In this document: positions 18,134 through 22,449 of the stretch, piece after piece
Layout: every line of letters begins with the position of its first letter
Numbering within the stretch: the stretch's first letter is position 1
Assembly: GCA_043803945.1 (NCBI GenBank)
Contig: JAZDJN010000106.1
Location: forward strand, 1-32,186
DNA length: 32,186 bases
Direction: 5' to 3'
Origin: a bacterium
GTDB lineage: Bacteria; Bacteroidota; Ignavibacteria; UBA10030
Position numbers and translations under genes: made by a program
The notes under the pieces: generated by a model
Seen by the model: only the letters and a program-made list of their open reading frames with translations
What the model was told of the DNA's origin: nothing
Databases searched by the model: none

Positions 18134-18227
18134 TAGTGTTCCCCGAATGCTTCTATCGGGGATCTACTATATGATGAACTTTAATTCCGCATAGTAGATC
18201 CCAAACTAAGTCATTTTGGGAACACTA
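18134..18227. repeat. 94-nt cruciform REPIN/MITE-like element, copy 1
   Basis: TAGTGTTCCCCGA..TCGGGGATCTACTAT-N20-ATAGTAGATCCCAAA..TTTGGGAACACTA; terminal IR TAGTGTTCCC/GGGAACACTA. Confidence 0.85.
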
Positions 18228-18379: not shown

Positions 18380-18805
18380 TTATAACAGGAGCAGGATGAG
18401 ATACACACACACGGTCACAAATCCCAGGCTCGAAAGTGTCGGAAGAACACGCTGCCGTGATAATTCATTGGCGATGAGACCGGGGATGATATATCCGATC
18501 GATTGCAGATCGATGCCAATAACCGGCATCGGTTGAATTACGGACTCAACAATGATCTTCAGACAGAATCCTATTAGTAACGCAACGAGCAATCTTCTCC
18601 TTCCATAGATAATTAAATGCCTTGCAAGGAATTCGAGGATTGCCCAGGTAATCATCGCGATTATTACCGTAATCAGAATTTTCCCCGGCTGTTGGATATA
18701 CAGTGCAAAATACCCCGGTGCAATCACTCCACCCGGAGAGACACCCGCCAACTCATAGAATAGAAAACCAACCACCAATCCAATAAAGAGCGATTCAATG
18801 ATCAT
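18380..18805 (-). CDS. pgsC: Poly-gamma-glutamate biosynthesis protein PgsC/CapC
   Basis: GVSPGGVIAPGYFAL; IYGRRR; LQSIGYIIPGLIANE; hydrophobic 141 aa; RBS AAAGGAG. Confidence 0.93.
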   Translation of the reverse strand: MIIESLFIGLVVGFLFYELAGVSPGGVIAPGYFALYIQQPGKILITVIIAMITWAILEFLARHLIIYGRRRLLVALLIGFCLKIIVESVIQPMPVIGIDLQSIGYIIPGLIANELSRQRVLPTLSSLGFVTVCVYLILLLL

Positions 18806-18835: not shown

Positions 18836-19196
18836 TAGTGTTCCCCGAGTGCTTCTGTCGGGGATCTACCATACGGAGCATTTCTATTCCGGATAGTAGA
18901 TCCCAAATAAAGTCATTTTGGGATCACTATTGTTTCTATTTATTATTTCCCAAGCCCCATCAGTGTTCCCCGAGTGCTTCTGTCGGGGATCTAATTAGCG
19001 TAGTAGTGTAGCTCCGCTGGGTAGATCCCAAACTGAAGCCCACCTTCGCGGTTCGTGCTACGGTGGGTAAACATTTTGGGAACACTAAGTTTTTCTACTC
19101 ACTAGTGTTCCTTGAATGACTTCGTCGAGGATCTACCATACGGAAAAGCATTGTTCCTCATAGCAGATCCCAATCTGAAGCACATTGGGAACACTG
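18836..19196. repeat. Three tandem copies of the 94-nt cruciform element (18836-18929, 18961-19087 with nested insert, 19103-19196)
   Basis: Same ends and internal stems as copy 1. Copies 2 and 4 are 94 nt; copy 3 is 127 nt, mainly because of a ~31-nt inserted hairpin. Confidence 0.85.
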
Positions 19197-19240: not shown

Positions 19241-20401
19241 TCAGAACTTTTCCTTCGTGACTGATTCATTAAGTGTGTTGAGCATCAGGAATCCATCCCC
19301 TGCAATATTGCCGATACCAATGACCGTTGCACCTGACCCTTGCCAGTGCTGTACACAATTTCGAATAGCATTCTTATTCCAGATTTCAACCTTCTCACTT
19401 AAACATCCACCCGACAGTAGAATTCTTTTTGCCACTGAGCGATGAGTCCCAATAAGTATAATTTTCGAGAGATCAGTTCTGGTTGCGCACCAGCGGGCAA
19501 ATTGCACTGTCCGCAAGGGCCGGTCTGCACGCGTATTGAGGACAAGGATGAGCTTCTGTTCCTGAGGGAAGCCCTGACGATAGTAGCTCAGGAATTTTTC
19601 CGCCGATAGAAAATCATTCACCGCAAAGCCATTGATGAATCGAAATCCCTTTTGAACAGGAACCATAAGCTGAGAGGTCTCGGCATTCGTTCGGGCATAA
19701 TTCAGCATTCCATTCCAGACTTGTTCGCCTTCCATCCCGGCAAGCTTGCAGACTGTTCGAGCGAGTAGAAGATTCTCCGAGAATACTCCGGATGGCAGGT
19801 TCTCGATGTTATCTTGCTCTGGAGTAACAACAATCAGGGCGGACTCCCTTTTCTTAGCCTCATCTTCTATGATCTGACGATGTTGTGTATCGATGGTCAC
19901 AACGTTCGATCCAAGTGGAATAGCGGAACAGATTAACCGCACCCGCTCTTCATCAGTCGCTCCCATCTCCTCACGATGATCATCGAGGATGTTGGTAATG
20001 ACATAGATTGTCGGTTTGAGAACATTACTTTCGAGCCGCTGATATTCAGGTTTGAGGGACATATTTTCCATCACCACAGCATTGACCTGTAGTTTGGAAG
20101 CTTTCTGCAGCATGTTCACCTGTTCCTGAACGCGTGCAGGTCCTCTTCGTCTCAAGGCCTTATTCTGTCCATCAGGTAAGAAGATGGTGGGAATCACTCC
20201 GGTAATTTTGGCAAACGTAGGAATACCTCCAGCACGCAATCCCGCAGCGATGTATTCAACAACGCTCGATTTGCCCCGGGTACCGTTGACGAGAATCCGG
20301 ATTAGAATGCGTTCACGACTTCTCTTCACAAGTACAATCTCGAGGAGTAACAAGATTATTACGATAGAAAGAAGAATGAATGGTAGAACGGGATGTATCA
20401 C
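19241..20401 (-). CDS. pgsB: Poly-gamma-glutamate synthase PgsB/CapB (Mur-ligase-like)
   Basis: N-terminal TM; RILVNGTRGKSSV P-loop; AKITG; EQVNML; VITNILDDHREEMG; FINGFAVND; LNTRADRPLRT; GIGNIAGDG. Start is uncertain: in-frame GTG at 20401 preferred over 20479, which lies inside a repeat. Confidence 0.9.
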   Translation of the reverse strand: MIHPVLPFILLSIVIILLLLEIVLVKRSRERILIRILVNGTRGKSSVVEYIAAGLRAGGIPTFAKITGVIPTIFLPDGQNKALRRRGPARVQEQVNMLQKASKLQVNAVVMENMSLKPEYQRLESNVLKPTIYVITNILDDHREEMGATDEERVRLICSAIPLGSNVVTIDTQHRQIIEDEAKKRESALIVVTPEQDNIENLPSGVFSENLLLARTVCKLAGMEGEQVWNGMLNYARTNAETSQLMVPVQKGFRFINGFAVNDFLSAEKFLSYYRQGFPQEQKLILVLNTRADRPLRTVQFARWCATRTDLSKIILIGTHRSVAKRILLSGGCLSEKVEIWNKNAIRNCVQHWQGSGATVIGIGNIAGDGFLMLNTLNESVTKEKF

Positions 20402-20460
20402 ATTTTTCTCGAAACGTTTGAGTTCGAACTTGGCTGGAAGATAATAAAAAATAACTTGTA

Positions 20461-20810
20461 GACCTTTCGAAGGTTTCAAGGAGATAACTCAGCGACCTTC
20501 GGAGGGTTTCGCGCGTGTATCGAACCGTTCCCTGCCATATCGAAATCGAGTGAGAGGGAACGGTTCGGTCTCGCAGGAAGGTGGCATCGAACCGTTCGCT
20601 GCGATACCGATTACAAGTGTGAGCGAACGGTTCGGTACAAATGCAGAAGTCCGTCTTTTATCTCTGATTGACCTCAGGAAAAAGACGGACTTCTAATAAA
20701 AAATGACCGTCATCTCTCTAAGGGTTACCTCAGATCAGATGACGGTCAATTAGAAACATTTGAACCTTCCGAAGGTTCCAAAGAGATAACTCAGAGATCT
20801 TCGGAAGGCT
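20461..20810. repeat. Array of six hairpins (A-B-B'-C-D-A'), 12-15 bp stems, 20-21 nt loops, ~57-67 nt period
   Basis: Units at 20461-20508, 20521-20567, 20588-20634, 20645-20694, 20704-20748, 20763-20810. B, B', C and D stems are perfect. Confidence 0.85.
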
Positions 20811-20816
20811 ACAATC

Positions 20817-20891
20817 AGATCCCGTTTAGAAGAATAGCGGGATGATCACAAAAAGCGTGATAGATCCCCGCTAAATGCATGCGGGGATGAT
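20817..20891. repeat. Two tandem half-elements (AGATCCC(C)G..CGGG(G)ATGAT) related to the right half of the 94-nt element
   Basis: AGATCCCGTTTAGAAGAATAGCGGGATGAT and AGATCCCCGCTAAATGCATGCGGGGATGAT, directly downstream of the 20906 stop. Confidence 0.6.
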
Positions 20892-20905: not shown

Positions 20906-22387
20906 TCACTTCATCAGGATCATCTTGCCAGTGAGGCGTTGACTACCCGATGTCATGACATACATATAGGTCCCTGATGTTAGATTCTTGGCATCAAAGA
21001 TCTTTGAGAATGTTCCCGCTTCCAGGAATTCATTCAGCAATGTTGTTACTTCCCGACCCATGACATCATACACTTTCAAGGTTGTCATACCCCTCTGCGG
21101 GATAGAGAACCTGATGGTGGTTGATGGATTGAATGGGTTTGGATAGTTCTGTGATAAGGCATATCCTTCCGGAATGGCTTTATCCAGTACTTCGACATTC
21201 ACAGCCTTGTCGCTGAAAATATAATAGCGGACACCCGGCATAGAACCGCCACCAAAAACACAAACATAAGCTGTGTCACCAGTTGGACTGAATGCGATTC
21301 CACGTGGCCGCTCATTTCCCTTATCAGCAGTTGTAACATAGCCAAATGCCCAATTGATACTGTCTTTAATGGTCATTGTTTTTGTATCAATTCCGTACCA
21401 GGTACCTGGTGTATAATTTTGCACAACCTTAGTATCCCACCAGCCATTCGGCATACCAGCATACGATCCTGCGCTTGCCCATAAGTAGCCGGTTTTCGGA
21501 TGCCAGGCAAATGATTCGCATACGAATCCTTTAAGCAGCGTATCAATCTTCGAATATGGTCCAAGAACTCCGTTATCACTATGGTACCTCATAACCGCAT
21601 TTTGGGTATATCCGCCATAATAGACATCATTGCCATCGGCAGAAACTATCGCCGCACGTGAATAACCCTTGACGCTATCAACAGCATTTCCGATAAAATT
21701 AAAATCTTTATCGAAGATTTTTATTGGGCCATTCGGAAGGACACCATTGATAAAGATATTTCCATCTTTATCGATTCCAGGATAACCCGCACAAGCAGAA
21801 AATGCTGTAAGACCAGCAGCACCTCCTGCCATGCCTTGTCCGGTTTTATAATTTATCCTGTACATGTAGTCCCAATACATCGCAAGAATATTGCCCGAAG
21901 GATCCTTTCGAAGCCCCCTTCCACTATTCACACTCCAATAGTATAATGGATTAGTGGCACTCGTACTTTTTGAAATCTCTCCTCCCATTGTGTCGACCTT
22001 CGTTCCACGAACTCCCGTTAACATGGGTGAGAACGATGCTGGGGTTCCATCAGGAAGATAACAATACAATTTGCGAACTGTTGTCCACTGTGCCCGAAGA
22101 CTATCAGGATTTGATTTATATCGATAATTCGTGACATAGATTGTATCCCTTGCATATGCTGTATAATTCTGGATCCAGACTTTACCGTCAGGGCTAACCT
22201 CTATTCCATGGACATAGGACCAGTGAAGAGTGTCTTTTAATCTTCCACCTGCCCCGATATCCTTCTCACCCTTGCCTAAGGGTGGAAACATCCCTTTATG
22301 GACCCACCCGGGTTTGTATACCTGCGATAAGGCAGTACATGAAACTAATAGAGCGAGAATTACGAGAGCTGGTACAATACGTTTCAT
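20906..22387 (-). CDS. Secreted beta-propeller-like protein with type-A T9SS C-terminal sorting domain
   Basis: Signal peptide; repeats HGIEVSPDGKVW, AIVSADGNDVYYG, RGIAFSPTGDTAYV; CTD YALSQNYPNPFNPSTTIRFSIP..LKVYDVMGREV..LTSGTY..KMILMK. Start moved to MKRIVP. Confidence 0.8.
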   Translation of the reverse strand: MKRIVPALVILALLVSCTALSQVYKPGWVHKGMFPPLGKGEKDIGAGGRLKDTLHWSYVHGIEVSPDGKVWIQNYTAYARDTIYVTNYRYKSNPDSLRAQWTTVRKLYCYLPDGTPASFSPMLTGVRGTKVDTMGGEISKSTSATNPLYYWSVNSGRGLRKDPSGNILAMYWDYMYRINYKTGQGMAGGAAGLTAFSACAGYPGIDKDGNIFINGVLPNGPIKIFDKDFNFIGNAVDSVKGYSRAAIVSADGNDVYYGGYTQNAVMRYHSDNGVLGPYSKIDTLLKGFVCESFAWHPKTGYLWASAGSYAGMPNGWWDTKVVQNYTPGTWYGIDTKTMTIKDSINWAFGYVTTADKGNERPRGIAFSPTGDTAYVCVFGGGSMPGVRYYIFSDKAVNVEVLDKAIPEGYALSQNYPNPFNPSTTIRFSIPQRGMTTLKVYDVMGREVTTLLNEFLEAGTFSKIFDAKNLTSGTYMYVMTSGSQRLTGKMILMK

Positions 22388-22449
22388 TGTGACCCCCAAT
22401 AATTTATTGAATGAATAAGTTAATTAATATTGTAGATTGATAATTAAAG

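Follow-up and report, generated by a model that had tools for sequence, protein, structure and literature searches.

A probable cluster of six REPIN-type elements from four families in an intergenic gap of an Ignavibacteria genome

Why would six hairpins of similar size lie side by side in the gap between two bacterial genes, with stems of several kinds and loops that look alike? This is the case at positions 20461 to 20810 of contig JAZDJN010000106.1 from assembly GCA_043803945.1 (Bacteroidota; Ignavibacteria; UBA10030). We refer to the whole stretch of DNA that was analysed, positions 1 to 32,186 of this contig, as the window. An original prediction, made from the sequence alone, named the hairpins A-B-B'-C-D-A' in that order, described a constant loop on variable stems, and saw in this the reverse of how repetitive extragenic palindromes (REPs) and their hairpin-forming doublets (REPINs) are built. 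We think it very likely that the array is instead a cluster of six REPIN-type elements, that is, inverted REP doublets, which belong to four families. The cluster would resemble the bacterial interspersed mosaic elements (BIMEs) of enterobacteria, and we infer that it was mobilized by REP-associated tyrosine transposases (RAYTs).

Hairpin families in the array and across the genome

Inverted repeats are present at all six sites, in the order originally described. They lie within 20462-20815, their arms of 13-17 nt are 82-100% complementary, and the core arms are 20-21 nt apart (Table 1). By stem family (F1 to F4) the order is F1-F3-F3-F2-F4-F1. A and A' are indeed copies of each other (81% identity across 54 nt), and B and B' are similarly close (82% identity across 51 nt). 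A further F1 copy, with a loop closely similar to that of A', is at C104:118384. (C16, C18, C62, C64, C65, C66, C101, C104, and C112 are contigs of the source genome, G000.) The loops of A, C, D, and A' do have G at position 7, A at position 12, and CTCAG at positions 14-18, as can be read directly from the sequence.

The source genome assembly is 5.54 Mb in 118 contigs with 46.5% G+C, and certain contigs end inside repeat arrays. We scanned all of it for hairpins with perfect stems of at least 10 bp and loops of 14-28 nt and found 283. Loops of 20 nt (n = 52) and 21 nt (n = 49) stand out, as every other length has 4-27 hairpins. A second and more tolerant catalogue, for loops of 17-23 nt, has 245 entries, and at least 144 of these belong to seven stem families that have the same geometry (a stem of 12-16 bp and a loop of about 20 nt). 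Single arms exceed scrambled controls by about twofold for F1, F3, and F5 and by more than ninefold for F2, F4, and F6. The stems of F2, F4, and F6 form one visible superfamily. In the window, the arms of C and D have the same base at 10 of 15 positions when aligned in register. The claim that the stems of A, C, and D are unrelated therefore fails for C and D.

Across the genome, conservation is highest in the arms (about 1-2 bits per column, as against 0.1-1.6 bits in the loops), and it ends sharply at the outer edge of the arm. This makes each element a self-contained unit, 45-51 bp long. Within a family it is the arms that are conserved and the loops that vary, which is the opposite of a constant loop with variable stems. 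Furthermore, the arm of every family is a near-palindrome with an odd central base (ACCTTC-C-GAAGGT, AGATGAC-C-GTCATCT, or GAAGGT-T-ACCTTC), and this is the form of a single REP unit. The original prediction had set against its own view the possibility that each stem is an independent, known REP family that merely accumulated here. This is essentially what we found, though these families had not been described previously.

The elements form 98 clusters, of which the one in the window is the largest with mixed families. Where neighbours are from different families, 11 of 19 pairs are only 9-17 nt apart with unrelated gap sequences, which suggests that insertion beside an existing element is favoured. 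The 57-67-nt periodicity of the array would result from this close packing together with the uniform size of the elements. Almost all of the elements (131/144) are outside of our crude calls of open reading frames (ORFs), which cover 87% of the genome. If we consider the 113 elements with a called gene on both sides, then 32 are between convergent genes (versus 379 of 3,914 intergenic gaps overall) and 7 are between divergent genes (versus 388 of 3,914).

Two clusters are larger than the one in the window. Both are tandem arrays of F1 alone with a 62-nt period, at contig ends (C18:8-238 and C64:97203-97495), and 21-nt and 17-nt linkers alternate between their arms, which is a BIME-2-like layout. 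The two are probably pieces of a single array at which the assembly broke.

Table 1. Locations of hairpins and genes, and the stem families
Feature	Location	Strand	Details
Hairpin A (F1, putative REP doublet)	20462..20507		arms 20462-20474 and 20495-20507; match ACCTTCCGAAGGT / ACCTTCGGAAGGT with 1 mismatch each; loop 20 nt
Hairpin B (F3, putative REP doublet)	20521..20567		arm CGAACCGTTCCCT; loop 21 nt
Hairpin B' (F3, putative REP doublet)	20588..20634		arm CGAACCGTTCGCT; loop 21 nt
Hairpin C (F2, putative REP doublet)	20645..20694		arm AGAAGTCCGTCTTTT; loop 20 nt, typical of the F2 loop consensus
Hairpin D (F4, putative REP doublet)	20701..20751		arm AAATGACCGTCATCT; loop 21 nt
Hairpin A' (F1, putative REP doublet)	20763..20810		arms within about 20758-20815; 24 nt between its longer arms
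Family F1			arm ACCTTCCGAAGGT; 49 copies
Family F2			arm AGAAGTCYGTCTTYT; 41 copies
Family F3			arm CKAACCGTTCSCT; 25 copies
Family F4			arm AKATGACCGKCAYCT; 12 copies
Family F5			arm GAAGGTWWCCTTC; 8 copies
Family F6			arm AAAAGTCYGACWTYT; 7 copies
Family F7			arm TAGATTCCCGAAATCT; 2 copies
RAYT	C65:26953-27516		F1 on both sides
RAYT	C62:8207-8857		F5 on both sides
RAYT	C18:83031-83702		F7 on both sides
RAYT	C62:20005-20595		F2 variant on both sides
RAYT, frameshifted	C16:24951-25352		F2 variant on both sides
RAYT	C66:7339-7950		F2 on 3' side; two F3 hairpins on 5' side
PgsB-like Mur ligase gene, downstream of array	19241..20401	-	Mur_ligase_M, E = 1.3e-8
Gene with T9SS C-terminal sorting domain, upstream of array	20906..22399	-	Por_Secre_tail, E = 2.1e-9; stop codon at 20906
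F8 hairpins in the window	18159-18202; 18861-18904; about 18986-19030		half-copy at about 20857-20880
F8 hairpins around the GIY-YIG gene of C101	45664; 45877; 46334; 46458; 46681		

RAYT genes beside the hairpin families

If these hairpins are REPINs, then RAYT genes flanked by the same hairpins might be present, and the original prediction had proposed looking for them. We found F1, F2, F5, and F7 on both sides of RAYT genes and F3 on one side (Table 1). By chance, we would expect just 0.003-0.034 arms per interval of 1.8 kb. In this genome, 12 matches to Y1_Tnp (PF01797) reach or exceed the curated cut-off; one of these is a typical IS200 transposase, and the others are RAYT-like. NF047646 (REP-associated tyrosine transposase) is their top or sole NCBIfam match, and two of the proteins are above its cut-off. 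The RAYT-like proteins retain the HUH motif PNHYH and the tyrosine motif YIHLNP. By profile, the top relative with a solved structure is TnpA-REP from E. coli (PDB 4ER8, E = 1.5e-8); a single-sequence search of solved structures with the RAYT from C65 gave no hits. The paralogues are just 33-38% identical to each other, so they are old and diverged rather than copies of an insertion sequence. No RAYT adjoining any copy of F6 was found in this assembly. Of the possible roles that the original prediction had considered for the hairpins, a target for a HUH or RAYT-type nuclease is thus the one that gains support, as the families flank RAYT genes; its idea of a protein that reads a constant loop on interchangeable stems does not.

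The RAYT of C16 is split into two frames (C16:24761-25304; profile positions 10-116 and 116-187). Given the frameshift, this copy is probably dead. The source genome has more matches to the core RAYT profile (12) than any relative (0-7), and at 5.5 Mb it is also larger than all 30 of the relatives that we sampled (1.7-4.4 Mb).

The nearest public relatives of these RAYTs are from metagenome-assembled genomes of Ignavibacteria and Ignavibacteriales. The F2 pattern, with 26 exact copies in the source genome, was absent from the 30 relatives and from 300 genomes sampled from the class, and the exact F2 hairpin pattern had no match among metagenome contigs. The F1 pattern, which has 29 copies in the source genome, recurs with 1-14 copies in six of 18 further genera from the same family. 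All six of these genera have a strong RAYT match, and F1 was found in none of the 7 genomes of the same family that lack one. As these genomes are related by descent, the test is not independent. Of 11 RAYT loci from relatives, 7 are flanked on both sides by hairpins with an arm type of their own.

We also considered the best 80 RAYT loci from all phyla, 70 of which have at least 200 nt on both sides. In 45 of these 70, perfect hairpins that share an arm flank the gene on both sides; in another 16 there is at least one hairpin but no arm in common, and the remaining 9 lack hairpins. The arms at these loci are palindromes of 13-16 nt with an odd centre (such as AACCTTGCGAAGGTT or AGAAACCGGGTTTCT), and the spacers between them vary in length, from 1-4 nt up to about 35 nt.

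We propose that each element consists of a near-palindromic arm of 13-15 nt, a spacer of 20-21 nt that would be made up of two inverted tails, and the inverted arm. The elements would be non-autonomous and would be moved in trans, as single-stranded hairpins, by family-specific RAYT paralogues that are encoded elsewhere. They would accumulate where intergenic DNA tolerates them, often at 9-17 nt from a resident element. The arms would carry the specificity for each paralogue. The tails may be alike between families because the REP units share a common descent, because all of the RAYT paralogues read this feature, or both. Any effect of the cluster on transcription between the gene for the cargo of the type IX secretion system (T9SS) and pgsB would be a by-product.

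The loop motif and other explanations

The oriented consensus of the F2 loops is ACCAGTGATTAATCTTTGTA, with the most information at G7, C14, G18, and A20. G7, C14, and G18 occur together in 28 of the 29 F2 loops of 20 nt, while the chance rate is about 3%. The same three bases are found in 11 of 18 loops of F1 (3/6), F4 (2/3), F5 (4/6), and F6 (2/3) but in none of six F3 loops. Similarly, when scored with a matrix derived from those of F2, the loops of F1, F4, F5, and F6 are far above chance (z = 5.3-6.8, with 0 of 1,000 shuffles as good), and the loops of F3 are not above chance (z = 1.2, with 114 of 1,000 shuffles as good). So there is a weak but real motif (C3, G7, C14, and G18) in a conserved register that is common to F1, F2, F4, F5, and F6 and is not shared by F3. 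CTCAG itself is a minority variant. Outside of the window, it begins at loop position 13 or 14 in 6 of 119 elements with loops of 19-22 nt (about 0.5 were expected by chance), and these six are spread over F1, F2, F3, F4, and F5. The loop motif of the original prediction thus generalizes, as the G7/C14/G18 signal, to five families; CTCAG does not, and F3 lacks the motif.

The conserved positions of the spacer are mirror-symmetric (C3/G18, G7/C14, and T9/A12), which fits two inverted REP tails better than a site for recognition of the loop. Most simply, the loop can be read as a pair of inverted tails of 10 nt, roughly nnCAnnGATT in F2, each of which is part of the adjoining arm's REP. Di Nocera et al. 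2013 (PMC3733652) would call such a pairing a tail-to-tail REP dimer. The tail positions then include G7, A12, and the outer C and G of CTCAG, and its middle TCA falls on variable columns. We also considered that the loop might extend the stem under selection. The mirror pairs of the F2 loops do not covary (permutation P >= 0.08 for the seven variable pairs; the three best-conserved pairs are invariant and hence uninformative), so we dropped this idea.

The shared loop bases might instead mean that one protein (a host factor or a single nuclease) reads a conserved loop core and that the stems are interchangeable scaffolds. That G7, C14, and G18 are common to five families far above chance is what this explanation has in its favour. 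We judge it to be quite improbable: the loops are much less conserved than the arms, F3 does not have the motif, the conserved positions are mirror-symmetric as for two inverted half-elements, the mirror pairs of the F2 loops show no covariation, and the stem families have their own adjacent RAYT paralogues (except that none were found for F4 and F6).

Another explanation is that the hairpins are RNA elements of the host, such as terminators, attenuators, stem-loops that stabilize mRNA, or a platform for RNA-binding proteins, and that they control read-through into pgsB. As the original prediction had noted, the array is between a T9SS-associated gene and pgsB. More precisely, it lies in the roughly 500 nt that separate two minus-strand genes (Table 1), so it would be transcribed, and the minus-strand RNA of the array folds far more stably than shuffled sequences (z = -10.3, with 0 of 100 as good). 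It would also fit that the elements are enriched downstream of genes (32 of 113 are in convergent gaps) and that REPs in other bacteria reportedly influence termination and the stability of mRNA (PMC3733652). However, the same families occur in at least 98 separate clusters beside unrelated genes, and they flank transposase genes. The orientation of the elements, as judged from the asymmetric loop, is random with respect to transcription (27 the same and 20 opposite), which argues against a strand-specific RNA platform (an RNA-binding platform was one of the options that had been raised for this array). Between 20300 and 21000 there is one terminator-like site, inside one of the arms of A', versus 0.7 expected from shuffles, so we rejected intrinsic terminators, which would be G+C-rich hairpins that have a short loop and a T run behind them. 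Rfam 15 has no matches at the gathering thresholds in the entire window, and below threshold, between 19800 and 21400, there are only chance-level matches (tp2 and microRNA precursors; the top one has 26 bits versus a threshold of 50). Overall, we consider control by host RNA elements to be unlikely, though the cluster could possibly affect read-through toward pgsB, and a secondary, co-opted effect of the hairpins as RNA might exist.

Small GIY-YIG nucleases that act on single strands, like Ssn, could be the partners of the hairpins instead of RAYTs. Such genes are abundant in this genome (18 matches, of which about 11 are small stand-alone ORFs of 93-123 amino acids). An eighth family of hairpins with the same geometry, F8, flanks one of them and also occurs in the window, and Ssn nucleases with hairpin repeats have been published (PMC11893778). 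The original prediction had suggested searching for flanked GIY-YIG genes as well. We examined 15 of the 18 hits and found no F1-F6 arm, with up to one mismatch, within 700 nt of any of them, while F1, F2, F3, F5, and F7 directly adjoin RAYT genes. We give very little credence to GIY-YIG nucleases as the partners of the array. As for other kinds of arrays, a CRISPR array, which would have identical direct repeats and unique spacers of about 30-40 nt, is ruled out by the four arm types, the related loops of 20-21 nt, and the dispersed copies across the genome (we did not search for cas genes). We dropped integron attC sites as well, given that arm types differ between units and that the families are scattered across the genome.

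Several observations weigh against the view that the array is a cluster of REPINs that were mobilized by RAYTs. Neither movement nor cleavage of these elements was observed. We found no RAYT adjoining any copy of F4 in this assembly, and F3 is on one side only of a single RAYT (the one in C66). Five of the seven RAYT-like proteins, including the frameshifted one from C16, score under the curated cut-off of NF047646 (38-70 bits versus 80). Genome-wide, there is no conserved target or tag, such as GTAG or CGTC, beyond the arms. An exact 26-nt stretch of pgsB had no match among metagenome contigs, so no second copy of the locus was found for a comparison of presence and absence. The placement statistics are based on crude ORF calls. 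Finally, the NHYH / FQ / YIHLNP signature of these RAYTs looks, by motifs alone, like that of subclass 2.1 in Table 1 of PMC6006769 and of no other subclass there (Group 1 in PMC5581495), and Quentin et al. 2018 (PMC6006769) report that they found no REP-like sequences near subclass 2.1 genes. Either that survey missed the REPs of subclass 2.1, or our assignment from motifs is wrong.

Relation to known systems and the neighbourhood of the array

REP doublets (BIMEs or REPINs) that flank single-copy RAYT genes, the presence of several families per genome, dimers with spacers of 20-100 bp, and clusters have all been described (PMC6006769, PMC3733652, PMC3116915, PMC3337134). The elements in the source genome are like the REPIN/BIME and RAYT (TnpA-REP) systems of Pseudomonas and Enterobacteriaceae (PMC3116915, PMC6006769) in that they are short extragenic palindromes with tens of copies, and an inverted pair of REPs forms the hairpin. 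Also as in those systems, there are multiple families per genome, each with its own diverged single-copy HUH/Y1 gene, and they occur as singles, dimers, and clusters. In contrast to what is described for those systems, the elements here are much smaller (45-51 bp), the spacer is fixed at 20-21 nt, the arm is an odd-centred palindrome of 13-15 nt, there is no GTAG or CGTC tag outside of the arms, and the host is Ignavibacteria-like. The RAYTs also differ in signature from the E. coli type, which has DHLH / WE / YIHYNP (PMC6006769, Table 1).

The closest specific parallel is the TIRtrons and TIRYTs of PMC3733652, which are RAYT-like genes flanked by inverted repeats without GTAG. As in the source genome, certain of those repeats are partly or wholly self-complementary, and they form moderately abundant families that occur as dimers or clusters. 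Unlike TIRtrons as they are described there, the consensus arms and flanks of F1-F6 do not have the GGGGWSAS motif that is found in many of the terminal inverted repeats, and seven families share one geometry in a single genome. Our comparison to TIRYTs is by their description.

We found no paper that combines RAYTs or REPINs with Ignavibacteria, and "Ignavibacteri" does not occur in the article texts of PMC6006769 and PMC3733652 (their supplements, which have lists of RAYTs, aside). For RAYTs and cyanobacteria, we found nothing further in the literature. If our explanation is correct, then the array and the more than 140 similar hairpins would be the debris of mobile elements, a commonplace type of bacterial repeat, here in a phylum that has received little study, and would not be a new regulatory array or a CRISPR-like system. 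REPINs and RAYTs have mostly been studied in Proteobacteria. Here, there are seven co-resident families, and at least five of them have adjacent RAYT paralogues. Small elements of fixed geometry with family-specific arms and common tails would be suitable for studying how Y1 transposases split recognition between the hairpin and the flanking bases.

These results suggest that a large subclass of RAYTs that was reported to lack REPs deserves re-examination. A more speculative idea, which may well be wrong, is that the NHYH / FQ / YIHLNP clade mobilizes REPs across many phyla (including Ignavibacteriota, Chloroflexota, Cyanobacteria, and Planctomycetota) and that these REPs are a "palindrome of palindromes." The self-palindromic arm would set the specificity for each paralogue, and the fixed tail bases, C at +3 and G at +7 from the arm, would mark a common guide or cleavage site.

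The neighbours of the array are identified by their matches to Por_Secre_tail and Mur_ligase_M (Table 1), and genes for PorV and CapC/PgsC are close by in the window. The pgsB-like gene probably starts at the GTG at 20401 rather than at the TTG that overlaps hairpin A. A PgsB-like gene was found in 2 of 20 relatives, and at the one of these loci whose hairpins we listed, none had F1-F7 arms. A direct repeat of 14 nt, the A-rich TAATAAAAAATRAC, immediately precedes hairpins A and D in coordinate order (20442-20455 and 20694-20707). On the transcribed minus strand, it becomes a run of U after each of these hairpins. Such a flank is not conserved across the genome.

The hairpin of F8 is GGGATCTACTAT, about 20 nt, and ATAGTAGATCCC, and it flanks the GIY-YIG gene at C101:46017-46241. 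It also has the form TTTGGGATCTRCTAT, about 20 nt, ATAGTAGATCCCCGAC, which contains GTAG. F8 and this gene look like an Ssn-like system, judging from their arrangement: as with Ssn (GIY-YIG) and the NTS/SRM hairpins described by Chenal et al. 2025 (PMC11893778), dispersed hairpins flank the gene for a putative single-stranded DNA nuclease. This likeness is limited to the F8 pairing, as the neighbours of F1-F6 are Y1 transposases and not GIY-YIG genes. In the window, copies of F8 bracket the CapC/PgsC gene (18380-18805). Elsewhere in the genome, two hairpins with the same stem and loop geometry (CCCGCGTTCGCGGG, 20 nt, CCCGCGAAAGCGGG) are at C112:9014-9160, about 200 nt upstream of a small GIY-YIG gene (C112:9366-9587).

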